The notes under the pieces were generated by a model that was not told the origin of the DNA, ran no database searches, and saw nothing but the letters and a program-made list of their open reading frames with translations. From an uncultured Actinomycetes bacterium (GTDB taxonomy: Bacteria > Actinomycetota > Thermoleophilia > UBA2241): a DNA stretch of 64,000 nucleotides. The stretch's first letter is position 1, and every line of letters starts with the position of its first letter. Shown piece after piece: positions 18,360 through 34,873 of the stretch. The DNA is taken from assembly GCA_963709345.1 (NCBI GenBank), contig CAVPVX010000002.1, positions 224,001-288,000 of the forward strand. Reading direction: 5' to 3'. The translations under genes and the position numbers were made by a program.

Positions 18360-19427
18360 ATGGCGACCGACCTCGACCTGCTGCGCGAGCTCTGCGCGGC
18401 CCCGGCTCCCACAGGCTTCGAAGCACCGGCCCAAGAGGTCGTCCGGCGGCGCCTCGCTCCTCTCTGTGAGCCCCAGGGTGACCCGCTCGGCAACGTCTGG
18501 GGGTCCGTGGTGGCCGATGGCGCACCCGGCGTCGTCGTCACCGCGCACAACGACCAGATCGGCCTCATCGTCACCTACGTAGACGAGCACGGCTTCGTGT
18601 CGTTCGACAAGATCGGCGGCGTCGACCCCCAGCTCATGCCCGGCCGCAATCTCGTCGTGCACGCGGCCACTGGCCCCGTCCACGGCGTCGTCGGCCGCAA
18701 GCCTTCGCACAAGATGACCAAGGAAGAGCGCGCCAAGGCTCCCGACCTCAGCGACCAGTGGCTCGACATCGGCGCCTCGACGCGTGACGAGGCGCTGGGG
18801 CTCGTCCAGATCGGTGACCCCATCACCTTTCCCGCGCACTTCCTGCCACTCGCCGGCGGTCGCTACGCCTCGCCGGCCGTGGACAACCGCGCCGGCGTGT
18901 ACGTCTGTCTGCGCGCGCTCGAGCACTACGCGAAGGCGCCGGCGGCCGCCGCCCTCACCGCCCTCACCACCGTGCACGAAGAGACGACCTTCATGGGAGC
19001 CAAGGCGATGGCGATGCGCTGGCAGCCGGACGTGATCGTGGTCGTCGACGTCGACTTCGCCAGCGACGACCCGGGGATGGACGCCAAGAAGCTCGGCGGC
19101 GAGGTCAAGCTGGGCGCCGGCCCGGTGATCCACCGCGGCGCCGGCAGCAACCTCGCCCTCGTCGATCTCGCCGTCCAGGTCGCCCAAGCCGAGGGCATCC
19201 CGGTGCAGATCAAGGCGATGCCCGGCAGCACCTCCACCGATGCCGAGGAGTTCATGGCGTCGGGCCGGGCGGCGACGCTGTCGTTCAGCATCCCCGTGCG
19301 CAACATGCACTCAGCGTTCGAGGTCTTCCAGCCGGACGATGCCGAGGCGGGCGCCCTGCTGGCGGCCGCCGTCGCGCGGCGTCTTGCCGACGGCTGGGAT
19401 CGCGAGAAGCTGGTGCCGCGCGCCTAA
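18360..19427 (+). CDS. M42 family metallopeptidase (aminopeptidase)
   Basis: TAHNDQIG, KIGGVDP, AVDNRAG, VHEE, VDVD, STDA, RNMHS. ATG 18360 with GGAGG. Confidence 0.9.
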   Translation: MATDLDLLRELCAAPAPTGFEAPAQEVVRRRLAPLCEPQGDPLGNVWGSVVADGAPGVVVTAHNDQIGLIVTYVDEHGFVSFDKIGGVDPQLMPGRNLVVHAATGPVHGVVGRKPSHKMTKEERAKAPDLSDQWLDIGASTRDEALGLVQIGDPITFPAHFLPLAGGRYASPAVDNRAGVYVCLRALEHYAKAPAAAALTALTTVHEETTFMGAKAMAMRWQPDVIVVVDVDFASDDPGMDAKKLGGEVKLGAGPVIHRGAGSNLALVDLAVQVAQAEGIPVQIKAMPGSTSTDAEEFMASGRAATLSFSIPVRNMHSAFEVFQPDDAEAGALLAAAVARRLADGWDREKLVPRA

Positions 19428-19514
19428 GCCCTTCGCGGCGCTCGTCGAGCAACGGGCCGCGCGCTCGTCGACCGGCGAGTCCGGCCAGGTGCGCCGGTCC
19501 ATCGCCCGCCGGCG

Positions 19515-19955
19515 CTACCGGGCAGACGCCCGGAATCCGGCGATCAGCTGCTGCTTCTGCGTGTCTGAGAGGCGGGCGGCGCTGTGGGCGAGCCTGTACT
19601 GTAGCGGGGGCATCTCGCCGTCACTCACCATCTCTGCGGCCTGAGCCATGAGCCCGCCGCCGCCGACCGCCGGCCACTCCGAGAAGTTGAGGTGGTCGCG
19701 ACCCTCTGCGACGTCCCGGTAGACGAGCCACGACGCCGGGGCGATGTTCGCGTACCAGGGCCACACCGTCTCGTTGCTGTGGCAGTCAAAGCAGGCGCCG
19801 GCGGCCAGCGCCTCGGTCTGCGGGCTGTCCCACCGCGGCTCGCCGGTCACCGGCGGGCTGGTGTGGTCGCGGCCGTACGGGACCAGCTGGATAGCGCCGA
19901 AGCCCACGACGAGGACCGCGGCGACCCACACCAGGGTCTTCTTGCGTGGCAACAT
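19515..19955 (-). CDS. Heme-binding (Haem_bd-type) monoheme c-type cytochrome
   Basis: ACFDCHSNETVWPWY, GRDHLNFSEW, EMPPLQY; N-terminal membrane anchor. Confidence 0.85.
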   Translation of the reverse strand: MLPRKKTLVWVAAVLVVGFGAIQLVPYGRDHTSPPVTGEPRWDSPQTEALAAGACFDCHSNETVWPWYANIAPASWLVYRDVAEGRDHLNFSEWPAVGGGGLMAQAAEMVSDGEMPPLQYRLAHSAARLSDTQKQQLIAGFRASAR

Positions 19956-19957
19956 GG

Positions 19958-20587
19958 TCAGCCTCCCGGCTCGCTGCTCCCGGCGCGCGACAGCACGCCG
20001 CCGATGAAGTCTATCTCCGCCGGCGCGACACGGCTCCAGTAGGCGTCGTTGTGGCCGCCGGCCTCGAACCCGCCCGCCGGAGGCTCCGGCAACGACTCCG
20101 CGAACGCCGTGGCGGCGGCTTGGAAGGGATCCTTCGTGCCGCAGTCGATGCGCACCGGCAGGCCGCGCAGACGCTCCACGTCCGCGAACACGCCGTGGGC
20201 CGCGTAGTCTGCGGCGCCGTCGAACGCGTCGCCGACACCGGCGTCGTGCAACTGCCAGAGCGCCGGGCTGAGCGCGCCGACGCCGCGGGAGTCAGCGGGG
20301 CGCAACTCGGCGGCGCGAAGGGCGCCGTAGCCCCCTTGGACCAGCCCATGATCGCGATCGGCCCGCCTGACCCGAAGTCGCCGCGGAGCAGCGGGATGAA
20401 CTCGTCGAGCAGCATCGCCATGGCGTCGTCGCCGGCCTCACGGCCGTGCCAGTACGTGTCGCTCGCCTGCAGTGCCGCCACGGCGAACGGCGAGACCGGC
20501 TACCGTCACGCCGCCGCCGATCAGGAACTGGCGCCGAGTGACACCAGCCTCGGGAGCGAGCAGCGCGCCGGTCCGGTCCGGGCTCAT
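19958..20587 (-). pseudogene. Degraded exported alpha/beta-hydrolase (esterase)
   Basis: Three frames: Tat-like TRRQFL leader from ATG 20587; DTYWHGREAGDD...MGWSKG; then GYGAL...LSPALW...IDCGTKDPF...GGHNDAYW. The nucleophile elbow is split by a frameshift near 20330 and the N-terminal part looks deleted. Confidence 0.75.
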
Positions 20588-21724
20588 TCGCAGGCGGGCG
20601 CCGCCGTCCGTGCCGCCGGACCGGCCGCCAGCGGCCCGCTCTGCGGGGAGCGCAGCGCCGCGGCCAGCTGGCGCGCCATCTCCGGCTGCCACTTGGCGCG
20701 CCCGTGCGCCAGCAGGTGGAAGAGGTCGGCGAAGTCGTCGTCGTGCAGGTCCACCGCCCGCTCGATATGCAGGTACGGGACCCCGTAACGGGAGGCGAGC
20801 TCGCCCGCCCGGGCCCGGTACGCCGGCACGACGCCGGCCCAGTCGGGGCCGGCGGCCGAGGAGTTCAGGGGCTGGTCGTACAGCACGACGGCGAAGCCGC
20901 GCTCACGAGCCAGCTTCAGGACCTCCTCGAGCACGGCGAAGTTGTAGTCCGCGTACTTGCGGTACAGCTGCACGTCCTTCTCCAGCACGTAGAGGACGTT
21001 GCGCCGCTTGCCGAGGGGGAGGTGGCCCTTCGCCCCCGCCGGGTAGTAGTGCTTCTCGTACTCGAGCCGGAACCCCCACGGCACGCCGCTCGACGGGCGC
21101 TCGCGCAGGTACGAGCCGAGGAAGCTGAAGACGCCGGGCAACTCCCCGGTCGCCGGCGCTTCCTTGCCGTACAGCCGCGGCGAGAGCTCCGCCAGCCGCG
21201 GGCTTCGAAGGAGGAGCGGCTGGCCGGACAGCAGCCTCTGGTCACGCTCCGGCGTGCCGGTGACCCGGATGGGGGCGAGCCCGAGAGCCACGACCGCCGG
21301 CCCGGGCGGGAGATTGTCGATGAGCGTCAGCGACATGGCCATGCTCTGCTGGTGCGCGGCGAGACTCACCACCCGCAGCGGCTCGCCCGAGCCGCGCGAG
21401 ACCGCCGCCGCGAGAGTCTCCTCACTGATGATGCACTCCATCGTCCCCGAGCCGCCGAAGAGGTAGATCGTGCGCGTCTCCGGCGGATCCTCGCGGAGCT
21501 CCGCGATGCGGTACGAGAGGTGCAGGTAGTCGTCGTGGGTGATGCGCAGGAGGCGTCCCTTGTCGACCGCGGTTATGCCGCCGCCGAGCACCGCGGACTG
21601 GAAGGCGAGCAGGACGCCGACGGCGAGGGCCGCCGCCGCAACGAGCACCAGCGGGTTGCGCTGGCGAAAGCCACGGCCGAACCAGCGCCGCCTTCGCGTC
21701 TTCTGTGCTGCGGGTGGGACTCAC
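20584..21724 (-). CDS. DltD-like / SGNH-type extracytoplasmic acyltransferase, paralog 4 (5' end uncertain)
   Basis: YLFGGSGTME and DLFHL motifs. The RBS-preceded GTG 21724 is one base out of frame with the body; first in-frame GTG is 21648. Confidence 0.7.
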
Positions 21725-21755
21725 CCTTCGCTCCTCGTCTGCAGGCGCTATCGTC

Positions 21756-23003
21756 TCACCACGTATGACCAGTAAGCCACGCGAGCGGCAGACGCACAAC
21801 GTAGTACAGCACCTTCAGCGCCTGACGGAAGTCCGGCGTCGCCACGAAGGCGTACCCCAGGGCGACGTACAGGAAGGTCACGGGATAGCCGAGCCAGCGG
21901 ATGAACGGCTCGAACGCGGCAGCCCGCGGCAGCCCCGCCTTCTTACGCGCCTTGCGGCGCTTCTTCTTCCAGCGCTGGAAGGCGGCGACGACCACGAGGC
22001 CGGTGCCGTGATACAGACCCCACACCGTCCAGTTGAGGTCGACGTAGTGCCAGAGGCCCATGGTCAGCATGCTCGCGTACAGACCGAGCCAGGGCTTGCG
22101 GGTGAGCCCGAAGACCGGGAAGTAGACGTTGTTGCGCACCCAGCTGGAGAGGGAGATGTGCCAGCTGTGCCAGAAGTCGCTGAGGTTCTTCTGCAGGAAC
22201 GGCAGGTGGAAGTTCTCCATGATCCTGAAGCCGAACAGCGACGAGAAGCCGATGGCGAGGTCGGTGTAGGCGGAGAGGTCGAAGTACGCGCGCACGAAGA
22301 CGATGATGCAGAAGGCGAGCGGCCACCACGTCCCCACCTCGCCCGGGTTGAAATCGGTGCGCCCGATGGTCGTCGTGATCTTGCCGAAGAACATGACGAA
22401 GAGGAAGTCGACGACGAAGACCTTCTTGAAGTACCCGAGCGCGATGCGCCTGAGCCCCGTGTAGAAGAGCTGCCGGTCGAACTCGAAGCTGCGCTTGCCG
22501 TAGAACCCCTGGTACGTCTCGAGCGGGCCGGCCGGGAAGGTCGGGATGAACATCATGAACGCGCCGAGGCGCAGCAGCGAGTTGTCCTGAATCACGCCGC
22601 GCATGCAGTCGAAGACGTACTGCAGCAGGCGGAAGACGAAGTAGCTGATGCCGAGAGGCATCAGCAGATGAGAGACGACCCAGTCGCCCTCTCCCCACAC
22701 GGCGATCACCCCGCGCTGGCCGTACTTGCCGATCGCAAGGGTGATGAGAGCGATGAGGATCGCGATGAGCACGGCGCGGCTCCCGCGCAGGCGCTCGTGC
22801 CGATGCAACTCGACGAGCTGGTGGACGACCAGCACCAGCCCCACGGCCACGGCCGCGAATATCGGGTGGAGGACCGCCAGGATGCCGACGCTGAGGAGCA
22901 GCGTGAAGAGCAGGCGGTGCTTGTCGTTGCGCAGCGCCAGCCAGAAGACGACCAGGGCCACCGCGACGACCGGGATCAGGTACAACGTGAAGTAGATCTT
23001 CAC
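21756..23003 (-). CDS. MBOAT family O-acyltransferase (DltB/AlgI-like)
   Basis: PLGISYFVF, FPAGP, YFDLSAYTDLAIG, ENFHLPF, DFWHSWHISLSSW, GLWH. Confidence 0.95.
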   Translation of the reverse strand: MKIYFTLYLIPVVAVALVVFWLALRNDKHRLLFTLLLSVGILAVLHPIFAAVAVGLVLVVHQLVELHRHERLRGSRAVLIAILIALITLAIGKYGQRGVIAVWGEGDWVVSHLLMPLGISYFVFRLLQYVFDCMRGVIQDNSLLRLGAFMMFIPTFPAGPLETYQGFYGKRSFEFDRQLFYTGLRRIALGYFKKVFVVDFLFVMFFGKITTTIGRTDFNPGEVGTWWPLAFCIIVFVRAYFDLSAYTDLAIGFSSLFGFRIMENFHLPFLQKNLSDFWHSWHISLSSWVRNNVYFPVFGLTRKPWLGLYASMLTMGLWHYVDLNWTVWGLYHGTGLVVVAAFQRWKKKRRKARKKAGLPRAAAFEPFIRWLGYPVTFLYVALGYAFVATPDFRQALKVLYYVVRLPLAWLTGHTW

Positions 23004-24070
23004 CCGCTCTTCCCCTCCGTTCCCTCATCGTTCATGAGCCTCATGAGCGCGGCCGCCAGCGCACTCTGCCAGATGACGCGCCCCGGTTCCACCAGATGCG
23101 AGAGATCCTGGAAGTACGCGTCGGGGATCGCGACCGTCTCGTTCAGGTCGAGATACGGCGCGTCGTACTCTCGCGCGAGCCGCGCCACCGGCGCGCGATA
23201 CGCCCGCTGCGCGCGCTCGAAGCGGCCGCGGACGACGTCGGTGTTGAGCGGCAACTCGAGAAGGACGATGCGCACACCGCGATCGCGGGCCCGCCGGAGC
23301 AACTCCTCGAGCATGGCGAGATTGCTCGCGCGATTCTCCTTGAAGACCGGGTACCGGCGCGTGTTCCACACGCCGACGAGGCGCTCCTTGTAGCGCGTCG
23401 AGCGCGCCGAGTCCTCCGAGTAGCGATGCAGCTCGTACGGCGTGCTCGGCGGCTCGCCCTCGAGCAGCGCCGCACCGTGCGTTCGCGTCCAGTCGGTGAT
23501 ATACGACCAGATCCCCGGGAGGATCGTGTACTGATACCTCTGCAGGTCCCACTCGGCGGCGACGAACCGGCGCAGAGCGGGACTGCGCAGCAGAAACTCG
23601 CGTCCCTCCACCTGCTGCGCATTCTGCTCCCGGGTGGGAGTGAAACGTCCCAGATTGACGCCGACGAGCAGCCAGGCAGGCGTGTCGGGGACGGCCTCGA
23701 TCACGGCCATGGTCTGCGCGAAGTTCTGGTTCATGGAACCCAGGTCGTACGCGGCGACGCGAGGCCCGCCGAGCTCCTCTATCTCGGCGGCGAGACTCTC
23801 GCCGCTCACGATGGACTCGCGCGCGCTCGAGCCGCCGAGCAGGTACACGGCGGGCGTGCCCGGCGGGTCCCGCCGTGCCCTTCCCACCATCCATGAGACG
23901 TAGGTGAACGAATCCCTGGGATTCCGCAGGCAGCGGTCCAGCGGGACGCTGGTCCAGGACCCGCTCGTGAACAGCCATTGGAATCCGAGCAGCGCCGGGA
24001 CGAGCAGGATGGCGGCGACCAGCAGCACCAGGGGGCTGCGATTGAGGAAGCCGCGACGGAAGCTGCCCAT
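23000..24070 (-). CDS. DltD-like / SGNH-type acyltransferase, paralog 3
   Basis: N-terminal TM, YLLGGSSARE, ELPLN, YLDLN, FQDLSHL. Confidence 0.72.
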   Translation of the reverse strand: MGSFRRGFLNRSPLVLLVAAILLVPALLGFQWLFTSGSWTSVPLDRCLRNPRDSFTYVSWMVGRARRDPPGTPAVYLLGGSSARESIVSGESLAAEIEELGGPRVAAYDLGSMNQNFAQTMAVIEAVPDTPAWLLVGVNLGRFTPTREQNAQQVEGREFLLRSPALRRFVAAEWDLQRYQYTILPGIWSYITDWTRTHGAALLEGEPPSTPYELHRYSEDSARSTRYKERLVGVWNTRRYPVFKENRASNLAMLEELLRRARDRGVRIVLLELPLNTDVVRGRFERAQRAYRAPVARLAREYDAPYLDLNETVAIPDAYFQDLSHLVEPGRVIWQSALAAALMRLMNDEGTEGKSG

Positions 24071-25140
24071 CAGAGGGCCTCCCGCAGGGTCCCGTCGTCG
24101 TACAGGCGCGCGAGCTGCCGGGCGAGCTCGGCCTGCCAGACGACGCGCCCGTCGGGAAGGAGGTGCGAGAGGTCGAGGAAGTCCTCGCTCGGGATGTCGA
24201 CCTGCTCGTTGAAGTCCAGGTACGGCACCCCGTACTCGGCGGCGATCTCTCGCGTCGGCGTGCGGTAGGCGGTGAACGCCTCATCGAACGAGTCACCGAT
24301 GACCTCACGGTTGTAGGGCAGCTCCAGGAGCACCACGTCGAGCCCCTTCCGCTGCCCTTCAAGCACCAGGTCCCCGAGCATCGCCACGTTGAAGTCGAGG
24401 ACCCGCCGGAACGCCGGGTAGTACCGGCTCAGCCACTTCTGCACCAGGGCATCCTTGCGCTCCGATGACAGTGCTTTGCGGCCGTCGAACGCGTGCGGCC
24501 TGTACGGCCGCGGGCTCAGCCGGCCCTTGAACAGAAGGTCGTTCTCGCGCTGCTGTGCGTACGACGCCAGCGCCGAGAAGATGCCCGGGAGGATGGTGTA
24601 CGAGCGCCGGTGCTCGCCGGAGCGGGCGACCACCCAGTCCCGCAGCGAGTCGCTCTTGAGCAGGAGCTCCCGGCCGACGACCTGGTTGTAGTTGCTCTTG
24701 GGACTCGTGGTGAAGCGGCCGAGGTTCACGCCGATGAGGACGGTCGTCGGCGTGTCCGGCAGGTTGTCGACGATGGCCCAGCTCTGGGCGTAGCGCTGCA
24801 TCCGCGAACTGAGGTTGCGGGCGGCGATGGTGGGGCCTCCCGCGGCGCGCACGTCGCCGGCGAGGGAGGGACCGCTGACAATGGCCTCCCGGCCGCTGGA
24901 GCCGCCCAGCAGCGTCACGAGCGGCCGCTCCGGCGGCCGGCGCTTGAGCTCGCCGACCGTCCACGACACGTACATGTAGTCGTCCGTGGCGTTGCGCATC
25001 CAGCGCTGCACCGGCACGGCGCTCCAGGCGCCGCTGGTGAAGAACGCCTGGATGCCGAGGAGCGCCGGCACCAGCAGCGCGAGCGCCACGACGAGCACGA
25101 GGGGGCTCCGGTTGCCCAGCCCGCGACAGAAGCTTCTCAC
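24070..25140 (-). CDS. DltD-like / SGNH-type acyltransferase, paralog 2
   Basis: LLGGSSGRE, ELPYN, YLDFN, FLDLSHL. Confidence 0.72.
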   Translation of the reverse strand: MRSFCRGLGNRSPLVLVVALALLVPALLGIQAFFTSGAWSAVPVQRWMRNATDDYMYVSWTVGELKRRPPERPLVTLLGGSSGREAIVSGPSLAGDVRAAGGPTIAARNLSSRMQRYAQSWAIVDNLPDTPTTVLIGVNLGRFTTSPKSNYNQVVGRELLLKSDSLRDWVVARSGEHRRSYTILPGIFSALASYAQQRENDLLFKGRLSPRPYRPHAFDGRKALSSERKDALVQKWLSRYYPAFRRVLDFNVAMLGDLVLEGQRKGLDVVLLELPYNREVIGDSFDEAFTAYRTPTREIAAEYGVPYLDFNEQVDIPSEDFLDLSHLLPDGRVVWQAELARQLARLYDDGTLREAL

Positions 25141-26210
25141 TGCGGGACGCCGCCGTGCCCGGACGTCTCGCCCATGATCTCCACGACTTCCCGCGCGAGG
25201 CGGCGCTGCCAGACCGTGCGGCCCGACTCGACCAGGTGCGAGAGGTCGTGGAAGTCGCGGCTCGCGATGTCGAGCTCCTCGTTGAAGTCGACGTAGGGTA
25301 CCTCGTACTCGTCGGCCAGAGCCTCGACCGGCTCCCGGTACTCCTCGAGGGCGTAATCGAACCGATCGCCGACCACCTCGCGGTTCAGCGGGAGCTCGAC
25401 GAGCACGACATGCAGGCCGCGCTGCTCCGCGCGCACAAGGAGCTGCTCGAGCATGTCGACGTGAAAGGCCAAGTTACGCCTGAACCTGGGGTACCGCCTC
25501 GTGTTCCACACCTTGACCATGCGCTCCTTCTCGGCCACGGTGTGGTTGCCCTTCAGGTTGTACCGGTGCTGGCCGTAGGTCCTCCGCGGTATCCGGCCCA
25601 GGAGGAGCTCGCCGCCCTGCTCCTGGACGTGACTCGTGAGCTGGGAGAACACGCCCGGCAGGATCGTCGTCGTGTACTTGTACTTGCCGTACGTCTCCGC
25701 CACGTACTGCTGCAGAAAGCGACTCGGCAGCAGGAGCTCGCGGCCCTCCGACTGCTTGAAGCTGGCGCCACGGTCGGAGGTGAACCGCCCGAGCCCCAAA
25801 CCGACGATCAGATAGGTCGGCGTCGCCGGCACGTTGTCGGCCACCGCGAGACTCTGCGCGAAGTTCTGGTTCATGGACCCGAGATCCCACGCGGCGACGT
25901 CGGGACCGCCCGCCTCCCTGACGTCGGCGGCCAGGCTCGGGCCGCTGACCACGGCCTCTCGCGCCGCGGACCCGCCGAGCAGGTACACCGACGGCTTGTC
26001 CGGCGGATCGCGCTTGACCTTGCCGACGACCCAGGAAACGTACACGTAGTCGTCGCTGGACTTGCGCAGCCAGTACTCGAGCGGCACGGCCGTCCAGCGG
26101 CCGCTCGAGAAGCACTCCTCGACGGAGTAGAGCACGGGGACGAGAAACAGCAGCGCCGCAAGAAGGACCAGCGGGCTGCGATTGAAGAGACCCCGTCTGA
26201 AGCTGCTCAC
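25137..26210 (-). CDS. DltD-like / SGNH-type acyltransferase, paralog 1
   Basis: YLLGGSAARE, ELPLN, YVDFN, FHDLSHL. Confidence 0.72.
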   Translation of the reverse strand: MSSFRRGLFNRSPLVLLAALLFLVPVLYSVEECFSSGRWTAVPLEYWLRKSSDDYVYVSWVVGKVKRDPPDKPSVYLLGGSAAREAVVSGPSLAADVREAGGPDVAAWDLGSMNQNFAQSLAVADNVPATPTYLIVGLGLGRFTSDRGASFKQSEGRELLLPSRFLQQYVAETYGKYKYTTTILPGVFSQLTSHVQEQGGELLLGRIPRRTYGQHRYNLKGNHTVAEKERMVKVWNTRRYPRFRRNLAFHVDMLEQLLVRAEQRGLHVVLVELPLNREVVGDRFDYALEEYREPVEALADEYEVPYVDFNEELDIASRDFHDLSHLVESGRTVWQRRLAREVVEIMGETSGHGGVPQ

Positions 26211-27745
26211 CCCAGCTCCTCCGCGAGCAACGCGCGGAGCTCGGCACGGATGGCCTTGCCCGACCCCGTGCGAGGGATAGCCGGGACGGCGATCACGCGA
26301 CTCGGCAGCGATGCCGGCGGCAGGACGCCGCGAAGCTCGCGCAGCAGCCTCGAGGCCTTGAAGCCCTCGGGCTCGAGCGGGACGACGAAGGCCACGGGGA
26401 CGTGCCCGAGTATCTCGTCGGGCGCCGCCAGCACGGCGACGTCGGCGAAGCGGCCCAGACCCTGCAGCGCCTGCTGCACGTGCACGATGCTGACCTTCTC
26501 GCCGCCGCGCTTGATGATGTCGTCCTTGCGCCCGGCGATCCAGACGGCGCCACTCTCGTCGACGTGCCCGAAGTCGCCGGTCCTCAGCCCGTGCCCGGTG
26601 AGCGCAGCCGCGGTGATCTCGGGCTCGTCCAGATACCCCTGCATCAGCAGCGAGCCGGTGACGAAGAGCTCGCCGGTCTCGCCAGGCGCGGCCTCGGCGC
26701 CGTCCCCGCGCCGTGCCACGACGCGCATGTCGCCGATCGGCCGACCGACGGAGCCGACGCGCACGTCCAGGTCGGCCGGCGGCAGGATGCAGAGCCGGCC
26801 GCTCACCTCAGTGAGCCCGTACATGTTGAAGAGGCCGACGCCCGGGAGCACGCGGCGGAGCTTCTCGATGACGGGCAGCGGCAGGTGATCGCCGCTGCTC
26901 ACCCAGAAGCGGAACCCGTGCTCCCGCGGCTCGTCGAGCGGCTCCACGACGCGCACGAGGTGCGCCGGTGCGCCGCCGAAGCCGGTGCAGCCTTGCGCCT
27001 CCATCTCGTCGAGGAGCGCGGCGCCGAAGAAGAAGCCGAGCTGCCCGGCCACACCGCCGCCGTTCGCCAGCAGCGTGAGAAAGTGACAGATGCCGCTGGT
27101 GAAGTACGGCGGCGTGTTGATGAAGATGCGGTCGTCGGCCCGCAGCCCCAGCGTGAGCGCCACGTGACCGGCGTTGCTCGAGACCGCCCGGAGCGTCTGG
27201 CACACGCCTTTTGGCAGGCCGGTGGTGCCCGACGTGAACATGATCATCGCGAGTTCGTCCTCGCGCACCGCCTCGAGATCCGCCGGCGCGGCAGCCGGAC
27301 ACCCCGCCTCGCCACCGGGAGCGCGGACGCCCTCCACAAGCCCGTCGGCGCCGGCTACGACGACCAACTGAGCGGGCCCATTCGAGGTTATGGGGCAGGC
27401 GTCGTCGTCGGCGACCACGATCACGTCCGGCCGCGACTTCTCGATCAGCCAGTCGACGTCGGCTTGGGGAAGGCTCGTGTTCAGCGGCACCACGACCTGC
27501 CCCGCAAGCCAGGCGCCGAGCATGCCGATGAAGAAGTGGTCGTACTCCTCGAGCACGAGCGCGACGCGCGCCCCGCGCCCGCCCGCGGCCGCGCGCAGCG
27601 AAGTCGCGACCAGCGTGGCCCGCCGCACGGCCTCACCGTAGGTGTACGTGCGACCCCGAGTGCGGAGCAACGTATCGCCGGGCCGCTCGGCGGCCCAGCG
27701 GCGCAGACGCGCTACGGCATCGGTCATCAAGGAGGCTTGGGTCAT
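26207..27745 (-). CDS. Class I adenylate-forming (AMP-binding) enzyme
   Basis: FTSGTTGLPKG, YGLTE, TGDFG, GRKDDIIKRGGEKV, PRTGSGK. Confidence 0.92.
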   Translation of the reverse strand: MTQASLMTDAVARLRRWAAERPGDTLLRTRGRTYTYGEAVRRATLVATSLRAAAGGRGARVALVLEEYDHFFIGMLGAWLAGQVVVPLNTSLPQADVDWLIEKSRPDVIVVADDDACPITSNGPAQLVVVAGADGLVEGVRAPGGEAGCPAAAPADLEAVREDELAMIMFTSGTTGLPKGVCQTLRAVSSNAGHVALTLGLRADDRIFINTPPYFTSGICHFLTLLANGGGVAGQLGFFFGAALLDEMEAQGCTGFGGAPAHLVRVVEPLDEPREHGFRFWVSSGDHLPLPVIEKLRRVLPGVGLFNMYGLTEVSGRLCILPPADLDVRVGSVGRPIGDMRVVARRGDGAEAAPGETGELFVTGSLLMQGYLDEPEITAAALTGHGLRTGDFGHVDESGAVWIAGRKDDIIKRGGEKVSIVHVQQALQGLGRFADVAVLAAPDEILGHVPVAFVVPLEPEGFKASRLLRELRGVLPPASLPSRVIAVPAIPRTGSGKAIRAELRALLAEELG

Positions 27746-27762
27746 GCGCGGAGGTCCCGCCG

Positions 27763-28107
27763 TCAGAAGCCGACGTACCGGAACTCGGTCAGCTTGTTGC
27801 CCACGAGAACGGCGATCGTGATCGCCAGGAAGAGGAGGAACCAGAGCAGGGTCTGCAGACTCAGCCCGAGGCCGTAGAAGACCCAGCGCGTGCGTGGCTC
27901 GGCCGGTTCGTCGGCCGGCTCCTCGTCCCGGGCTTCCATTGCGTTCGGCTCGTCTGAGTCGGCGTCGTGAGCGCCGTCGGGAGCGGCGGGAACGTCGCCC
28001 TCGGCGCCGGGCTCGCGACCCTCGAGGTCGGAGGCGCCATCCGCGGCAGGAGGCGCGCCGTTCGCGACGACCTCGCCGGGAGCCTGTTCCTCGCTCGGCT
28101 CAGGCAT
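27763..28107 (-). CDS. DltX-like small membrane protein with C-terminal FxYxxF motif and acidic N-terminal extension
   Basis: Single TM helix followed by GNKLTEFRYVGF*; sits between the carrier protein and the ligase. Confidence 0.7.
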   Translation of the reverse strand: MPEPSEEQAPGEVVANGAPPAADGASDLEGREPGAEGDVPAAPDGAHDADSDEPNAMEARDEEPADEPAEPRTRWVFYGLGLSLQTLLWFLLFLAITIAVLVGNKLTEFRYVGF

Positions 28108-28348
28108 CGCCCGCCTTCTTGCGCGCCACGTAAGCTAGCATGTGGCTGACCGTGTCGAGATTCTCGTAGATGATATCCATGGGCTTCACCTTGATCGCGA
28201 ACGTCTCTTCGAGAAACGCGATCAGCGCCGTGAGGTTCATCGAATCGAGAAGCTGGTCGCGGAACAGAGACGTATCCGCGGTCACTTCTTCGTCGTCGAG
28301 TTCGGCCTCTTCGCGGATGAACTCCAGGATGGTGTCGGCGTCGGTCAT
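28100..28348 (-). CDS. Acyl carrier protein (DltC-like)
   Basis: 82 aa, acidic, LLDSMNL phosphopantetheine site, FLEETFAI, ENLDTV. Confidence 0.9.
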   Translation of the reverse strand: MTDADTILEFIREEAELDDEEVTADTSLFRDQLLDSMNLTALIAFLEETFAIKVKPMDIIYENLDTVSHMLAYVARKKAGDA

Positions 28349-28387
28349 GTGGGGTCCTTCACTGGTCGGGAGGCTGAGGGACCGCCT

Positions 28388-29074
28388 TCAGGTGCGCGTC
28401 CCCTGGCTGTACGAGAACCTCATGGGGCTGACGAAGCCGGTCGCCTCGACCCCGGCCTTGAACACCTTGGCCAGGGTGAACACGCGCTCCGCGGTCTGGA
28501 AGCCCTGCTCGAGGCCCCACTCGTCGCTGCGGATGTGGCCGCGGCCGCCGGCCCAGCCGTAAGCGCCGAACTGGCAGGTGCCGTCGCCGTTGCCGACGAC
28601 GAGGCAGCCGTTGCGCACGAAGGGCAGCCACGTGGCGATGATCGCCGTCTCGGCGCCGCCGGAGCGCCGCCCGGCGGTGGCCATGACGCCGACCGGCTTG
28701 TCGGCAAGCTTGAAGTCCTGGTGGCGCGGCACGCGCGTGCGCATGATGAACTTCGTGAACAGGTCCGAGGGAAGGCCGAAGTAGACCGGGGTGGCGACGA
28801 GCAGGCCGTCGGCGGCGATCATCTTCTCGAGCACGCCCTGGACGTCGTCCTCCTCGGCACGCACGCAGGGGATGAACTCCCCGGTGTCCTTCCTCTGGCC
28901 GCAGACGTTGCAGGCCTTGCAGGGCTCGACGTGGAGCGCGCGCAGGTGGACCACCTCGTGCTCGGCCTCGCCGGGGTAGGTGGCGTCGAGCTTCTCGAAC
29001 GCCGTCTCGAGCATGATCCCGCTGTTGCTGTTGTCTCGGGGGCTGCAGTCGAGCCCTATCAGTCGCACGGTCAT
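28388..29074 (-). CDS. Flavodoxin-like iron-sulfur flavoprotein / NADPH-FMN reductase family
   Basis: CSPRDNSNS, PCKACNVC, DDV, ATPVYFG, GRRSGGAE. Confidence 0.88.
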   Translation of the reverse strand: MTVRLIGLDCSPRDNSNSGIMLETAFEKLDATYPGEAEHEVVHLRALHVEPCKACNVCGQRKDTGEFIPCVRAEEDDVQGVLEKMIAADGLLVATPVYFGLPSDLFTKFIMRTRVPRHQDFKLADKPVGVMATAGRRSGGAETAIIATWLPFVRNGCLVVGNGDGTCQFGAYGWAGGRGHIRSDEWGLEQGFQTAERVFTLAKVFKAGVEATGFVSPMRFSYSQGTRT

Positions 29075-29270
29075 GCGTCGCGCTCCTCTCCGTGCACGTC
29101 CGCCCCGTCTGAGTTGAGGCGAATGGGATGGTCAGGCCCGCAGTCGCGTACGGGAGAGTGATTCTACCAGACGAACGCGGCCCTCGCGCCCGCCCGCGAG
29201 GTCGTGATGGCCCAGCGCTCCAAGGTGGCGGGCGAGGGAACGCCCAGGACCCGTAGGCTGGAGCGAGGGA

Positions 29271-29357
29271 TGGTGCCGGAGGTGGGATTTGAACCCACAC
29301 GCCCTTTCGGGCACCCGATTTTGAGTCGAGCGCGTCTACCAGTTCCGCCACACCGGC
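29271..29357 (-). tRNA. tRNA-Leu (anticodon CAA), CCA encoded
   Basis: GCCGGTGTGGCGGAACTGGTAGACGCGCTCGACT-CAA-AATCGGGTGCCCGAAAGGGCGTGTGGGTTCAAATCCCACCTCCGGCACCA; long variable arm; TAGAAT -10 at 29376-29381. Confidence 0.97.
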
Positions 29358-29488
29358 ACGGTGAGCCGTGCGGGGATTCTATCCTGCATGCTCGCCCGGC
29401 GCGACGACCGCCGGGCCGAAGGTCGGGTGAGGAGACGGCGTGCCTGACATAGGATGAGCACGTCCGGTCGGCGACGTAGGAGGGTTTC

Positions 29489-29956
29489 ATGCGCAGGGCT
29501 CTGTTCGTCTTGGCCGCGATCGCGATCGCGGCGCTCGTCATCGTCGGATGCGGCGGTTCCGAAGAGCCCGCGGCGAACGAGACGCCCGCCGCCCAGTCCC
29601 CGGCCGGCGACACCTGGACCACTGTCACCACGCTGCACTCGGACGACCCGCAGGAGATCAAGGGGCTCGACATCAGCGAACCGTTCACCGCCTCCGGCGA
29701 CGTCCGCTTCGTGGTCGATATGCCGGACGCCGGCGACGTGGACGGCGTGCTCGCCTTCGTGATGGCAGAAGACCAGGCCGGCGACGCCGCGTCCATCATG
29801 GAGGCCTTACGGGCCCTCCCGGACGCGCAGCAGCTGACGCTCATGCCGTCGCTCGGGGGCGAGGCTGTCGTGCCCGGCCTCGACGGCAGCTACGTGCTGG
29901 TCAGCTCGGTACCCAACGAGAAAGCCTGGTCCGTGGAGATCCAGACGCAGCAGTGA
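29489..29956 (+). CDS. Hypothetical lipoprotein
   Basis: AGGAGG RBS; signal MRRALFVLAAIAIAALVIVG-C lipobox; acidic mature part. Confidence 0.8.
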   Translation: MRRALFVLAAIAIAALVIVGCGGSEEPAANETPAAQSPAGDTWTTVTTLHSDDPQEIKGLDISEPFTASGDVRFVVDMPDAGDVDGVLAFVMAEDQAGDAASIMEALRALPDAQQLTLMPSLGGEAVVPGLDGSYVLVSSVPNEKAWSVEIQTQQ

Positions 29957-29982
29957 CGGCCGAGCACGATCGGCCGGCTCCA

Positions 29983-30029
29983 CACGAACGACCGGGGCGG
30001 CGCACTCTGCGCCGCCCCGGTCGTTCGTG
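29983..30029. terminator. Perfect 22-bp stem hairpin between convergent genes
   Basis: cacgaacgaccggggcggcgca-ctc-tgcgccgccccggtcgttcgtg. Confidence 0.8.
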
Positions 30030-30047
30030 CGTACGAGCTCGGTCGGA

Positions 30048-30743
30048 TCAGTACTGGGAGGCGAACGTCGTCGTCCACATCTGCGGACCCATGCCACGGC
30101 TCACGGCGTAGCAGGTCGCATAGATCTGCGAGCTGCCGTCGTAGATGCTGTCGTGGCGCCAGGGGTTCCAGCTCGCGGACCAGGTGCCGGTCCAGTACTG
30201 GAAGAGGCCCTTGAACGCAGTGGAGGAGCCGGCGAACCGCCGGCCGCCGGACTCGCGCATCATCATGCGATAGATGCCTGCGGCGTTCACGTGGTACTTG
30301 GCCGCCGCGATCTTGATGATCGGCAGCCAATTGCCACGCCGCTCCCACTCCGCGAGCCGCTGCTGCTGACGATACCGCTTCGCGAGCCGTTGCACCCGCT
30401 GCTTCCAGCGCTTCACGGCGCGGCGCTTGGCGACGACTTTCGCGCGAAGCTCCTCCAGCGACGGGGCGACCGTGGGGACGGGGTTCGGCGTGACGGGGTC
30501 GGCCGTCGCGCCGGCGCCGGCGGTCGCGGTGGTGGTGGCCGGGGTCTCGGCGACCAGCGCCGCCGCCAAGGCGGCCTGGGCACGGGCGAGGCGCTGGCGC
30601 GACTCGCGGAGGGAGTGCTTGGCGGCGCGGAGCTTGCCGCGCAGAGTGGCCGCTTCCGCCCGCTCGGGCAGCGCGGCGGCCACGAGAGCAGTGGCGATTA
30701 TGAGGAGTGCGGCGAGCGCGATCCAGCTCTTGAATCCTCTCAC
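30048..30743 (-). CDS. Secreted coiled-coil + lysozyme-like (SLT/Rpf-like) transglycosylase
   Basis: GTG 30743 with AAAGGA RBS; signal peptide ending AEA; MMRESGG, KGLFQY, TW, SQI motifs. Confidence 0.8.
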   Translation of the reverse strand: MRGFKSWIALAALLIIATALVAAALPERAEAATLRGKLRAAKHSLRESRQRLARAQAALAAALVAETPATTTATAGAGATADPVTPNPVPTVAPSLEELRAKVVAKRRAVKRWKQRVQRLAKRYRQQQRLAEWERRGNWLPIIKIAAAKYHVNAAGIYRMMMRESGGRRFAGSSTAFKGLFQYWTGTWSASWNPWRHDSIYDGSSQIYATCYAVSRGMGPQMWTTTFASQY

Positions 30744-30931
30744 AAGGTCCTTTCGACGCGATTTCCCGCGCGGGCAGCGGCAGAGCCTGTGCCCGGGGGC
30801 AGCCGGCGTCGGGCCGCGCGAGGCCCCGCACGCGAACGCCGCAAGAGGGAGAAAGGGAGAAAGCAGAGGGCGAACGGATGTGGGGGCGCGACAGACGCCT
30901 CGTTGTTCGTTCGATCGTGGAGTAAAGCAGG

Positions 30932-31573
30932 TCAGTCGCGCGGACGCAACCTGAGCGGGCTGCGCGCAGAGACTTCGACGATCCAGCCGAACACGTGGGA
31001 GCAGCTCCGCAGGACGATGAAGCCTGCCTCTTCCGCGAACCTCACCGTATCTCTGTCGAGCCGGCAGCCGCCGGCGAACGCCGCCCACGACGCCGCCGCC
31101 CGGGTCTGCAGACTGCGCGCCGGCTCCCAGGGCAGGTGCACGTGCTCGAGGAGAAGCAGCGAGCCGCCCGGCACGAGGACCCGGCGCAGCTCGGAGAGCG
31201 CCGCCGCCGGGTCGGTGACCGTGCAGAGACTGAAGACGCTCACGGCCGTGTCGAACGACGCCGCGCCGAACGGCAGTTCTTCGGCGCGGCCCTCCACGAA
31301 CGTGATGGGCGCGGCGGCGCCCGCCGCCCGCCGCCGCGCGCGCGCGACCATGCCGGCGTCGGGCTCCAGCGCCGTCACCGCGGCGCCGGGAGCGTACCAG
31401 CGCAGCTGGCTGCCCGTCCCGGCGCCGATCTCGAGCACGCGGCCGCGCGCCCGGGTTGCCAGGCGCCGCCGCCAGCCGCCGACAGCAGCGCGCTCGAAGG
31501 GCCACATGAACGCGTCGTACACGGCGGCGTGGCCGCCGGGCGGGGTTGAGATTCTCGTGTCTGTAGCCGACAC
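30932..31573 (-). CDS. Class I SAM-dependent methyltransferase
   Basis: VLEIGAGTG, AEELPF, FDTAV, LCTV, LRRVLVPGG, LLEHV, GGCRLDR. Confidence 0.9.
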   Translation of the reverse strand: MSATDTRISTPPGGHAAVYDAFMWPFERAAVGGWRRRLATRARGRVLEIGAGTGSQLRWYAPGAAVTALEPDAGMVARARRRAAGAAAPITFVEGRAEELPFGAASFDTAVSVFSLCTVTDPAAALSELRRVLVPGGSLLLLEHVHLPWEPARSLQTRAAASWAAFAGGCRLDRDTVRFAEEAGFIVLRSCSHVFGWIVEVSARSPLRLRPRD

Positions 31574-31650
31574 TAACGCCGTCCTTTCGCGTCCTCCGGT
31601 ACATGCCCCGCCGCCGGGCGCCACATGCATCGGGGCCCCGACGGGTGGCC

Positions 31651-32079
31651 ATGTCTCGTCTGTTCGATTTCACCAAGTACGATAAGGACGCGCCCGGAGC
31701 GCCGGTCGACCCGGAGCAGGCCGTCGAGCTCCGCCGCCTTGCCAATCTGTTCCTCGTCTCCGGCCTCACCCTCGTGCTGTTCATGATGCGCGCTCTCGCC
31801 GAAGGACTGGCGGTGACGTTCATCCCGGCCGGCGTCTACGCGGTCTGGGGCATCGTCCTGCTCACCGGCTGGGCCATGACGCTGGTGTACGGCGTCTACG
31901 TGACGTTCACGGCGCGACGCTGGGGCTGGTTCGCGCTGTGCGCCATCCCCTTCACGTGCGTGCCGTGCGCGGCGGCGTACGCGTGGGTCCGTCGCCAGGA
32001 GATCGAGCACGGCGTCCTCGGCGACCGGCCTGAGACTCCGGGGAGACAGCGGCGCGGAGGCCGCAGGAACAGACGCTGA
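31651..32079 (+). CDS. Hypothetical membrane protein
   Basis: About three hydrophobic segments; GC3-rich frame. Confidence 0.7.
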   Translation: MSRLFDFTKYDKDAPGAPVDPEQAVELRRLANLFLVSGLTLVLFMMRALAEGLAVTFIPAGVYAVWGIVLLTGWAMTLVYGVYVTFTARRWGWFALCAIPFTCVPCAAAYAWVRRQEIEHGVLGDRPETPGRQRRGGRRNRR

Positions 32080-32136: not shown

Positions 32137-33258
32137 TTGGGGTACGACCGGCGCGACTGGGGAGATGAGCCGATCAAGAAGACGATCCGCCACATCATCG
32201 TGTTCGTCGTCATCGTGGCGGCTCTGTACCTCCTGCTGCCGCGCCTCGTCGACACCGAGAAGACCTTCGGGTACGTCTCGCGCGCGAGTTACGCCCTGCT
32301 GGCGCTGGCGGTCGTCCTCGAGATCTTCGCCCTGCTGGGCTACGCGAACCTCTTCCGCTACATCCTGCGCGTCCTCGACATCCGCCTGCGACTCCACGAG
32401 GTCTTCGCGATCACGCTCAGCAGTCTGGCGGTGAGTCACATCTTGTCCGCCGGCGGTGTCGGCGGGTGGGTCGTCACCTACAACTCACTGCTCAAGCGCC
32501 GGGTGCCGCACGGCCTCATCTTCGTCGCCATCTCGGCGCAGCAGTTCTTCAACTACATCGTCCTGTGGTTCTTCTTCGCCCTGGCGATGGTCTACCTGGT
32601 GCTCGTGCGCGGCGGGCAGTCCATCGCCGGGTACCTGGTCGGCATCATCCTCATCGGCCTGATCCTCTGGCTGACTGTCTACGGCGTCTACCTCTACAAC
32701 CACCCGACGCGCATGCGTCTGCGCGTCGCGCAGCTTGCCCGCCTCGTGAACAGGGTGATGCGCCGCGAGGTCGTGGAGGAGCGCCACGTCGACGGGTGGC
32801 TCGACAACCTCTTCGTCGGCATGCGCCGCATGACGACCCACCACGGCTCGTTCCGCACCACGCTGCTGTTCGCCTGCGGCTTCTGGTTCTTCGACCTGCT
32901 CTGCCTGTGGTGCACGTTCGCGGCCTTCGGCTACACCATCGGCCTCGGCCACCTGCTTGTCGGCTACGTGGTGGCCTACTCGATCGGCACCCTCGCGCCC
33001 ACCCCGGGAGGATTGGGCGCCGTGGAGGGCCTCATGATCGCCCTCTACGCGAGCTTCGGCGTTCCCTCGGCGGTCGCCGTCGCGGTGGTCCTCGTGTACC
33101 GGATCATCAACTTCTGGCTGCCGATCCCGCCGGGCTTCATCGCCTACCTCGTAGTGCGCCCGGGCCGCCGCCGGGTCACCGAAGGCGAGGTCGAGGCGGC
33201 GGCGGGAGAGGCCGGTGCCGAGATCAGCGAGCGGACCCGCCGATCCGGTACACCTTGA
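32137..33258 (+). CDS. Lysylphosphatidylglycerol synthase TM-domain / UPF0104 flippase-like protein
   Basis: AGGVGG, APTPGGLGAVEG, VLVYRIINFWLP. Confidence 0.85.
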   Translation: MGYDRRDWGDEPIKKTIRHIIVFVVIVAALYLLLPRLVDTEKTFGYVSRASYALLALAVVLEIFALLGYANLFRYILRVLDIRLRLHEVFAITLSSLAVSHILSAGGVGGWVVTYNSLLKRRVPHGLIFVAISAQQFFNYIVLWFFFALAMVYLVLVRGGQSIAGYLVGIILIGLILWLTVYGVYLYNHPTRMRLRVAQLARLVNRVMRREVVEERHVDGWLDNLFVGMRRMTTHHGSFRTTLLFACGFWFFDLLCLWCTFAAFGYTIGLGHLLVGYVVAYSIGTLAPTPGGLGAVEGLMIALYASFGVPSAVAVAVVLVYRIINFWLPIPPGFIAYLVVRPGRRRVTEGEVEAAAGEAGAEISERTRRSGTP

Positions 33259-34873
33259 GTACCGGCCCGCGCTCGCCGGGACCGGGCCGGAACTCCTTCA
33301 CCAGCTCTGACTCGGCGTCCAGCCTGCGATAGAACTCGGCGGCCACCGGATACACCTCCGCCGCCGCAAGCACGCGCTCGAAGACCGCGCCGCTCACCAC
33401 GACGTACTCCACGCCCTGCGTGCGGAGCGCCGCCAGCTCCCTGGAGCCGTCGGGCGTGGCCGGAGCGGGCAGCTCGAGGCGCGTCACCTGGTAGGCCACC
33501 GCGTCGACCCCCGCGGTACGGTAGTCGGCCGCCGCCTCGGCACCCACGAGCGGCGGGCCGTGGGTCTCAACGGCGATCGACGTGCCCTGCGGCAGGTGCG
33601 TCTCGATCCACTGCTTGGCCACGACACGCATGTCCGGGCCGCTGAGCTCGCGATCGAACTCGATCGAGGCCGCGAGCGGCACGAGGAAGGCGGCGACCAG
33701 GACGGCCACCGCGAGCGGCACGACCGCGCGCCTCGCGCGCGGTCGCAGTCCCACCACTTCCACGATGAAGCGCATCGCGAGGACGATCAGCAGCGGGATG
33801 ATGGGCAGCAGGTAGCGGTCGGCCAGCGCCGTCCACGTCCCGATGTAGATGTAGTACCCGAGGACATACGGCACGACGAGCACGTCGAAGCGCGTACGGC
33901 GCCACAGCGCCCACCCGAGGCCGGCGACGCCCAGCCCCAGAAGGACGACGCCGAGCGCGCCACCGAGGTTCGTCGAGAGGTTGTACCAGAGCCCGTTGCC
34001 GGTGCTCTCGAACCCCAGCCACCCTCGCTCCATGATGCGGTTCTGGCGCACGAAGTCGGAGACGAAGCGCGGCGCGTCGAGCACCACGAACGGAGAGGCG
34101 ACGACGAAGGCGATGAGCATCGGCGCGTAGACACGGCTGGCGACGAGACGGATCCAGACGAATGCCGCGCGCGCGCCTGCGGCCACGCGCCGCGCCGCCT
34201 CCTCGCGGCACACGTACACGGCGGCGACCGTCGCCGGCAGCACCAGCATGCCGAGGTTGTACTTCGTCGACGTGGCCAGACCGGCGGTTACCGCCCCCCA
34301 GACGAGCCAGCGACGCCCGCCGCCGCCGACGGCCCGCTGCAGCAGCGCAAACGCGAGAAGCGAGAGCGCGACCGCCGTGACGTCCGTCACCGCCATGTGG
34401 GAGTAGGCGACGTGGAGCGGCACGACGGCGAGGAACAGGGCGGCGAGCAGGCCGGCCGGGCGGCCGAAGGCGACCCGGCCGAGCCGATACACGAGGTACA
34501 CCGACGCCGTGCCCATCGCCACCGACAGCAGCCGGCCGAGCAGGAAGTACGGGCCAGGGTCGACGACGAAGGCGACCTGCGACAGGAAGTTCCCCTGCCC
34601 CGCCGCCCACCAGACCGGCGCGGCGACGAGGTAAAGGGACCCGACCAGGTAGAAGAAGAAGGACGGATAGAAGAAGAACTGCGGGTTGACGTGCCCGCGC
34701 GCGGCCGCGAACGCCTTGGGGACGACGGTGCTCTCGTCGACGTTCACGAGGCTGTACGGCAGACCCCAGGTCACGCCCTTGAGGCGCAGCGCGAGGGCGA
34801 GCGCGAGCACTGCGAGGAGCAGGACTCCCGCGAGTCCGTGACGGCGCCACGGCCGCGCAACCGCTCGCCTCAC
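33224..34873 (-). CDS. GT-C fold glycosyltransferase (GT39/ArnT/PMT-like)
   Basis: NVDE, FFYPS, GRLLS, SHMAVTD, ATSTKYN, RYLLP. GTG 34873 overlaps the hisI stop. Confidence 0.85.

Follow-up and report, generated by a model that had tools for sequence, protein, structure and literature searches.

The window analysed here, a 64,000-nucleotide (nt) stretch of contig CAVPVX010000002.1 (assembly GCA_963709345.1) from an uncultured member of the Thermoleophilia, carries on its minus strand, at 20584-29074, an operon of nine genes. With moderate confidence, we propose that it encodes a carrier-dependent acylation pathway in which an MBOAT protein, an acyl-tyrosine shuttle and SGNH proteins work together in a Dlt-like build on an acyl group other than D-alanine. 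A preliminary description of the same DNA had likened these genes to dltXABCD, and the parts list of that system is indeed matched one for one: there is an adenylating ligase, a carrier protein, a membrane microprotein, an MBOAT protein and SGNH proteins, the last in four copies (P1 to P4).

From the parts, their conservation and motifs, and the predicted fold and docking, we infer the chemical steps, the acyl group and the acceptor as follows. The ligase would adenylate a carboxylic acid lacking an alpha-amino group, most likely a fatty or other aliphatic or aryl acid, and attach it to Ser36 of the carrier protein in thioester linkage. The MBOAT protein, through His282 and His319, would accept the acyl group on the cytoplasmic side, where the carrier delivers it, and pass it to Tyr111 of the microprotein at the outer face. 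From acyl-Tyr111, within the sequence FRYVGF, the group would move to Ser81 of a membrane-anchored SGNH paralog, which stands with Asp322 and His325, and the paralog would then form an ester with a hydroxyl group on a polymer or glycolipid of the envelope. A flavoprotein encoded in the same operon probably tailors or supplies the acyl group.

The MBOAT protein scores 52.8 bits against PF03062 (cut-off 27), and when a profile of 16 MBOAT sequences was compared with PDB sequences, only DltB chains were matched (6bug, 4.3e-39; 8jem, 6.7e-39). Its His282 and His319 align with both WH motifs of DltB and correspond to DltB His289 and His336, which are described as key residues in the available sections of PMC11035591; together with His332 they are invariant in the 16 sequences. 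The TIGR04091 DltB equivalog reaches 157 bits on the protein against a cut-off of 375. Judged by its sequence, then, the protein is DltB-like and, by NCBI's standard, not a DltB ortholog. It ends in LTGHTW, without a fused FxYxxF motif.

Such a motif is found in the microprotein, which consists of an acidic N-terminus, one hydrophobic helix and a C-terminal FRYVGF that fits the 'acyl shuttle' motif FxYxxF of DltX. According to the accessible part of PMC12148441, the Tyr of this motif is invariant, takes D-alanine from DltB and hands it to DltD; the B. subtilis-type version is FLYFGF (PMC11035591, same sections). Among 68 microprotein open reading frames (ORFs) the last six residues are FRYVGF in 65 and FRYVRF in 3, and in the last 48 residues of 17 diverse microproteins L40, E42, F43, R44, Y45, V46 and F48 are invariant. 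Pfam gave no meaningful match, the 17 C-termini scanned at E up to 10 yielding chance-level matches only, and the likeness to DltX is therefore one of motif and topology, not of sequence family. In the window, an acidic, Pro/Ala-rich N-terminal stretch (27910-28107, minus strand) brings the microprotein to 114 residues; the stop-to-stop ORFs of most orthologs span only 78-90 codons.

The ligase had been called a non-DltA enzyme in the preliminary description, and the comparisons bear this out. Among PDB sequences, FadD5 (1.8e-47) and FadD13 (6.6e-45) outrank DltA (1.6e-28); among NCBIfam models, all of which stay below their cut-offs, a long-chain fatty-acid-CoA ligase subfamily ranks first, and no DltA model is found in the best 25. 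The sources' own names for ligase relatives are acyl-CoA synthetase, never DltA. In adenylation domains, the Asp of the F-D motif holds the alpha-amino group of the substrate. When the ligase is aligned to both adenylation domains of LgrA, the Thr of its PPYFTSG stands at this Asp (in the A4 region, FadD5 has PLFH instead). Anchoring at this region succeeded for 62 of the 65 ligase ORFs, of which 61 read PPYFTSG and one PAYYTSG; none has Asp. This replacement points to a carboxylic acid without an alpha-amino group as the most likely substrate. The ligase, with FadD5 and FadD13 as best matches, adjoins a carrier gene, as ligases that load acyl carrier proteins (ACPs) do. Fatty acyl-AMP ligases carry a specific insertion that blocks coenzyme A (CoA); in the alignment to FadD5 and FadD13, no large insertion is visible.

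With its PF00550 match and Ser36 in LLDSM, the carrier protein shows the function-level feature of DltC, a phosphopantetheine Ser. It falls below the cut-offs of all NCBIfam ACP and DltC models, and general ACP models outscore the DltC models, the equivalogs of which reach 30.9 bits (NF003464, cut-off 68) and 18.7 bits (TIGR01688, cut-off 52.35). These comparisons bear on whether we simply deal with an ordinary dlt operon, whose divergent ligase still activates D-alanine for a teichoic-acid-like polymer. In favour of this, all five kinds of Dlt part occur here, DltB alone among solved proteins is related to the MBOAT protein, and the match of the ligase to DltA is still significant. Nonetheless, we regard this as highly improbable, given the closeness of the ligase to FadD5 and FadD13, the Thr at the amino-group-binding Asp in the absence of Asp from all 62 anchored orthologs, the DltB and DltC equivalogs (157 and 30.9 bits) far under their cut-offs, and a flavoprotein gene that has no dlt counterpart. 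The operon appears to work like Dlt, while its proteins fall outside DltA and, at the equivalog level, outside DltB and DltC.

All four SGNH paralogs share an N-terminal membrane anchor. P1-P3 are 48-52% identical to one another, and P4 is 32-34% identical to them. The GGS and DxxH motifs are invariant in the four window paralogs and in 37 relatives drawn from both clades of the family tree presented below; across these 37 sequences the invariant positions are G37, G80, S81, P128, R142, G186, H215, D322 and H325, and Asn276 is nearly so. Since S81, D322 and H325 are invariant, every paralog keeps the Ser, Asp and His. The Pfam model Lipase_GDSL_2 stays below its gathering cut-off on all four (best on P3, E 2.3e-6), and NCBIfam assigned them no family. 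An AlphaFold 2 (AF2) model of P3, built from 30 sequences (mean predicted local distance difference test, pLDDT, 87.5; predicted template modelling score, pTM, 0.86), has an N-terminal helix at 13-35 and, after it, an alpha/beta domain that contains a helical insert. Its comparison with the PDB gave 11 matches at E <= 0.001, DltD among them, and the six best were DltD chains (6o93, 6pfx twice, 7dxm, 3bma twice; E 3.6e-6 to 2.1e-4). They were followed by CgnD and many SGNH esterases, with probability 1.00 and target-normalised template modelling (TM) scores up to 0.66. The preliminary description had agreed to give way should an SGNH fold with a Ser-His-Asp triad be lacking; the modelled fold is SGNH and the three residues are invariant. 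Its term 'DltD-like' holds for predicted fold and topology, to which the modelled relation to DltD is confined, and fails for a sequence-level match.

The paralogs belong to a sizeable, unnamed SGNH family of their own. A paralog profile run against 1.84 billion representatives matched 2979 proteins at E <= 0.001, 279 of them at <= 1e-30, and none of 16 sampled members reaches the Pfam gathering score of any SGNH family. The Atlas clusters nearest to P3 are likewise unnamed, with a minority of members carrying DUF1574, LB_356 or DltD. The isoelectric points of the four window ectodomains (6.0-8.7) form no clear pattern. Two distant members are fusions: P0281 (766 residues) with a pectate-lyase-like beta-helix and P0350 (569 residues) with RCC1 repeats. 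Such partners weakly hint that the family acts on polysaccharides.

The structural matches ranking after DltD are SGNH esterases and thioesterases. This would suit paralogs that trim or recycle a modification which the MBOAT-microprotein pair itself transfers to the acceptor. We find this very unlikely, as DltD and PatB, which have the same fold and partners, are transferases in the available text of PMC12148441, the paralogs are translationally coupled to the MBOAT gene, and the predicted docking described below would suit a transferase that takes its acyl group from the microprotein. The nature of the final acceptor is a separate matter. The ligase is of fatty-acyl type, the second-best NCBIfam match of the carrier is an ornithine-lipid ACP model (below cut-off), and the operon contains no polymer synthesis gene, all of which would fit a pathway whose acyl group ends on a membrane glycolipid or a secreted metabolite and not on a wall polymer. 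That outcome seems to us quite unlikely: the trio of microprotein, DltB-like MBOAT and anchored SGNH protein has so far been described for envelope polymers, as far as the accessible part of PMC12148441 goes, the beta-helix fusion hints at polysaccharide, and no polyketide synthase, nonribosomal peptide synthetase or other biosynthetic genes lie nearby.

To place the operon among related genomes, we scanned GTDB species genomes with an anchor on two MBOAT peptide patterns taken from the MBOAT alignment. Of 93 confirmed stretches, 80 were kept; they represent 78 loci, nearly all titled Thermoleophilia, Actinomycetota or Actinomycetes, with two titled Armatimonadota and one Bdellovibrionota. Together with the window they make 79 sources, in which stop-to-stop ORFs were translated and searched with the paralog and MBOAT profiles and the other window proteins. 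The 52 sources with at least 6.5 kb upstream and at least 2.5 kb downstream of the MBOAT gene form the well-covered set, to which all counts out of 52 refer. The microprotein and the ligase are present in all 52 and the carrier protein in 51; 50 loci have the flavoprotein, and 50 have one or more SGNH paralogs. A failure of the genes to co-occur in related genomes had been the other point on which the preliminary description staked its reading, and co-occurrence is what the 52 loci display. Wider synteny was also seen, with an M42 peptidase in 45 loci, a pyrroloquinoline quinone (PQQ)-like propeller in 32 and an LPG_synthase_TM protein in 34. Because the surrounding neighbourhood is syntenic too among these metagenome-assembled genomes (MAGs), the co-occurrence partly reflects kinship. 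On the other hand, a five-gene core of flavoprotein, carrier, microprotein, ligase and MBOAT is retained even at MBOAT identities as low as 54-62% (L048-L066), at which the paralogs lie elsewhere or are absent. Close relatives of P3, the MBOAT protein and the ligase are all metagenome or MAG proteins, the named ones coming from Thermoleophilia or Actinomycetota under such names as 'hypothetical protein', 'AlgI', 'MBOAT family' and 'acyl-CoA synthetase'.

The number of paralog equivalents per locus varies: none in 2 loci, one in 12, two in 20, three in 16, four in the window alone and five in L030. The four paralogs of the preliminary description are thus present in the window without being typical, since loci carry 0-5 and mostly 2-3. 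Several loci depart from the common arrangement. In L030 (8859-15614), one paralog precedes and four follow the MBOAT gene; in L025 (1-6914), a second set of flavoprotein, carrier, microprotein and SGNH genes stands directly after it. L027 and L068, both titled Armatimonadota, are near-typical copies with MBOAT identities of 76-82%, and their titles may be a binning matter. The locus titled Bdellovibrionota (L076, 1-5117) has only ligase fragments, a shortened MBOAT gene and a piece of an SGNH gene, interrupted by an unrelated GTPase-like gene; it was rejected as an outgroup, its ligase, MBOAT and SGNH genes being mere fragments.

A FastTree tree of 136 paralog ORFs, all with almost full coverage of the profile, separates two deep clades. 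One, found downstream of the MBOAT gene, has a 48-row core (support 100) and includes P4; the other, found upstream, has 79 rows (support 99) and includes P1-P3. Position labels such as u2 (second before the MBOAT) derive from the stop-to-stop ORFs and are, as the tree shows, partly wrong. P3 falls in a clade of 24 rows (support 99), P2 in one of 20 rows, 19 of them labelled u2 (support 96), and P4 in one of 30 rows (support 100); each of the three sits in an old orthogroup. P1 represents a rare third lineage of the upstream clade with three rows, where it pairs with L071_u2 (support 99). The single paralogs of the most divergent loci form long branches near the base of the downstream clade. 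The likely history, as read from these sequences, is one SGNH gene giving rise to two, followed by further duplications of the upstream type.

The preliminary description had suggested co-folding the MBOAT protein and the microprotein with each paralog. We did so with P3, combining it with the MBOAT protein and the last 48 residues of the microprotein, each with its own alignment, alongside three controls. The complex scored 0.72 vs 0.36 for the best control, with runs agreeing in at least 94% of contacts and partner pLDDT of at least 87. The predicted contacts involve P3 1-27 and 184-196, microprotein 7-37 and MBOAT 178-204, and the P3 segments hold the near-invariant paralog positions G7, P13, L14, A19, P185 and G186. 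For comparison, the structures in the available sections of PMC11035591 are its own and comprise apo, DltB/C and inhibitor forms only.

Two modes of action for several paralogs can be weighed against this model. AlgJ and AlgX are thought to act in series in alginate acetylation, and a relay of this kind had been offered in the preliminary description as an alternative to parallel transferases. In the present operon, the microprotein would hand its acyl group to one SGNH clade, and the other clade would place it on the polymer, extra upstream-clade copies being variants of one of these steps. Two deep clades tied to gene position, the presence of at least one member of each in 37 of the 52 loci and the low identity of P4 to P1-P3 would agree with such a series. 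Yet the relay fits less well and seems unlikely: the N-terminal anchor and the 184-196 loop, the segments placed on the microprotein in the co-fold, are common to the four paralogs, no paralog resembles a soluble end transferase, a single paralog suffices in 12 of 52 loci, and the full Ser/Asp/His set is kept in both clades. Because the contact segments are near-invariant in all paralogs, alternative docking of all of them on one core is favoured over the relay and, one docking anchor being common to all, the paralogs are most likely alternative end transferases on the same MBOAT-microprotein core. They might then act on different acceptors or positions. Extending the Dlt-like reading in this direction, one could tentatively picture a branching hub for acyl export, a possibility that we put forward as a conjecture. 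One carrier-fed MBOAT and its microprotein would serve interchangeable SGNH transferases that share an anchor and each address a different acceptor or position; the non-amino-acid acyl group would possibly be redox-tailored by the flavoprotein, and the number of outputs, from one to five, would be tuned by duplication and loss within Thermoleophilia.

Several observations weigh against the proposed Dlt-like pathway or limit its reach. No DltD Pfam model matches any of the four paralogs at E up to 1. A 30-sequence paralog profile found nothing relevant among PDB sequences (best 0.34, a shikimate dehydrogenase), and the TM-scores of the P3 model to DltD are low, 0.30-0.37. The co-fold mark of 0.72 is attained by 116 of 157 solved complexes, compared with 2 of 215 mismatched pairs, but these calibration counts apply only roughly because our own alignments were used. 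Moreover, the packing of the P3 and microprotein helices carries most of the signal, since the control with a replaced MBOAT still reaches 0.36. Two well-covered loci (L057 and L058) have no SGNH paralog within 10 kb, next to the 12 with a single one. The loci themselves form one related group of MAGs, syntenic over the whole neighbourhood and found via two MBOAT peptide patterns. The start of P4 is broken in the window. The missing Asp of the ligase argues against an alpha-amino acid, yet it does not name the substrate. Finally, the AF2 model of the flavoprotein is of too low a quality for fold comparison (pLDDT 52.4), and that this protein prepares or tailors the acyl group is a guess, made because it is conserved at the head of the operon.

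Among known systems, teichoic-acid D-alanylation in Firmicutes is the closest. Both have an adenylating enzyme, a carrier, an MBOAT protein without a fused motif, an FxYxxF microprotein and an N-terminally anchored SGNH protein with Ser/His/Asp, and the best matches among solved structures are DltB for the MBOAT protein and DltD for the P3 model. The operon differs from Dlt in its acyl-CoA-synthetase-like ligase without the alpha-amino-binding Asp, in paralogs without sequence-level similarity to DltD, in having 0-5 SGNH genes of two clades per locus vs one DltD, in a conserved gene for a Cys-rich flavoprotein, in a longer microprotein and in its lineage, Thermoleophilia. In PatA/PatB, which serve peptidoglycan O-acetylation, and in other MBOAT-SGNH pairs that use acyl-CoA, the MBOAT protein passes the acyl group via an FxYxxF Tyr to the catalytic Ser of its SGNH partner. 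There, two extra helices of the MBOAT protein bear the fused motif, no ligase takes part and, in the text of PMC12148441 available, a carrier and a DltX-like microprotein are lacking. In contrast to the PatA/AlgI type, the operon has the motif on a separate gene and none in its MBOAT protein, and its loci almost always include a carrier (51 of 52) and a ligase (52 of 52). With the AlgI/AlgJ/AlgF/AlgX system it shares the presence of more than one SGNH-like protein per MBOAT, and AlgI is the automatic JGI name of the MBOAT relatives. AlgX is soluble and has a carbohydrate-binding module, whereas all four paralogs are anchored, none being soluble with such a module, and the operon lacks AlgF. 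The donor would differ as well, being acetyl-CoA in alginate O-acetylation and presumably a carrier-protein thioester here.

As far as the accessible part of PMC12148441 (2025) goes, Dlt is the only MBOAT-SGNH pathway described with both a carrier and a separate acyl-shuttle microprotein, the others lacking both. Our literature search, which did not cover a 2023 study of the DltX mechanism with possibly a wider survey, found no description of a carrier-fed MBOAT-microprotein-SGNH system other than Dlt. If the proposed pathway is real, the carrier-fed design is tied neither to D-alanine nor to Firmicutes, and one export core can serve several transferases. The operon would also offer a test bed for how acyl-tyrosine shuttles choose their SGNH partner, for the largest acyl group that a DltB-like MBOAT can pass, and for envelope decoration in Thermoleophilia, which are widespread in soil and digesters and, to our knowledge, have no described wall chemistry.

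Table 1. Genes of the operon in the order of transcription, with window coordinates
Gene product	Position	Strand	Details
Cys-rich FMN-reductase-like flavoprotein	28388-29074	-	228 aa; PF03358 FMN_red, E 6.2e-21; first operon gene
Acyl carrier protein	28100-28348	-	82 aa; PF00550, E 3.7e-10; Ser36 in LLDSM
DltX-like membrane microprotein	27763-28107	-	114 aa; ends in LTEFRYVGF; Tyr111
Adenylate-forming ligase	26207-27745	-	512 aa; PF00501, E 3.8e-63, and PF13193
SGNH paralog P1	25137-26210	-	357 aa; N-terminal anchor; Ser81/Asp322/His325
SGNH paralog P2	24070-25140	-	356 aa; upstream clade, 'second before the MBOAT' orthogroup
SGNH paralog P3	23000-24070	-	356 aa; upstream clade, 'directly before the MBOAT' orthogroup
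DltB-like MBOAT	21756-23003	-	415 aa; PF03062, E 4.8e-14; His282, His319
SGNH paralog P4	20584-21724	-	downstream clade; listed ORF 20584-21648; start GTG 21724-21722, then one-base frame break

The coordinates of the nine genes are listed in Table 1. The preliminary description had placed eight of them in a minus-strand operon at 20584-28348 with mostly overlapping start and stop codons. All eight ORFs were recovered, and five of the seven junctions among them overlap, by 8, 4, 4, 1 and 4 nt, the remaining two being gaps of 17 and 31 nt; the ATG of the microprotein, for example, overlaps the stop of the carrier gene. What that extent missed is the first gene, the flavoprotein, which precedes the carrier gene by 39 nt and, as said, accompanies the others in nearly all loci. 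The G+C content at third codon positions is 0.81-0.94 across the eight genes and 0.81-0.97 across all nine, in a window of about 70% G+C. The arrangement is not a matter of chance, because the gene order recurs in related contigs and all 68 microprotein ORFs retain the C-terminal hexapeptide. Directly upstream of the flavoprotein gene and on the same strand, a tRNA-Leu gene (anticodon CAA, 29271-29357) bounds the operon. A promoter and terminator scan of 19000-30000 gave 0 promoter-like and 2 terminator-like sites, without excess over shuffled sequence.

The fourth paralog had been recognised correctly as a gene, though with the wrong start. P4 orthologs begin about 25 codons upstream of 21648, which leads to the GTG at 21724. 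At 21718-21716 the window reads CCC where its nearest relative, L001, has CC, and because of this one extra C the frame is broken after codon 2. The next in-frame start, GTG 21648, falls within the anchor helix. Either the lesion is real, or the extra C arose as an assembly error in a homopolymer run.

In the flavoprotein, Cys52, Cys55, Cys58 and Cys70 are invariant in 20 orthologs, a spacing which we take to resemble that of iron-sulfur flavoproteins. Its best PDB sequence match is 7d38 'Cd1' (6.6e-11), an entry that accompanies a study of a flavone ene-reductase from a gut bacterium; the available main text of that study does not mention 'Cd1' (PMC7862272). This lead was not built on, because the match spans only the N-terminal ~105 residues.

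Farther upstream, at 29838-31835, both strands carry long ORFs that show no clear third-position G+C signal, and relatives of both occur in 34-43 loci; the C-terminal 260 residues of the minus-strand one (30048-30830) include a hydrophobic segment and an Ala-rich stretch and match no Pfam family. On the other side, the operon is followed at 19958-20499 (minus strand) by the remnant of an exported PF00756 esterase, in which a Tat-like RRQFL signal leads directly into the final ~175 residues, split over two frames. In other loci, the operon is followed by intact orthologs of ~330 residues, and a match was found in 20 of the 52 loci, the window included; by its family and position, the esterase could be a de-acylase for the same modification. 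The start of a small Haem_bd protein with an N-terminal hydrophobic segment (19515-19955, minus strand; PF14376, E 1.1e-34) abuts the end of this remnant, and such a gene lies downstream of the operon in 11 of 52 loci. Finally, 3-6 kb upstream of the operon, at 32137-34966, the window carries genes for the LPG_synthase_TM protein (plus strand) and a PMT_2/GT-C-type glycosyltransferase (minus strand), syntenic in 34 and 24 loci, respectively, and it is possible that the two are envelope-polymer genes.

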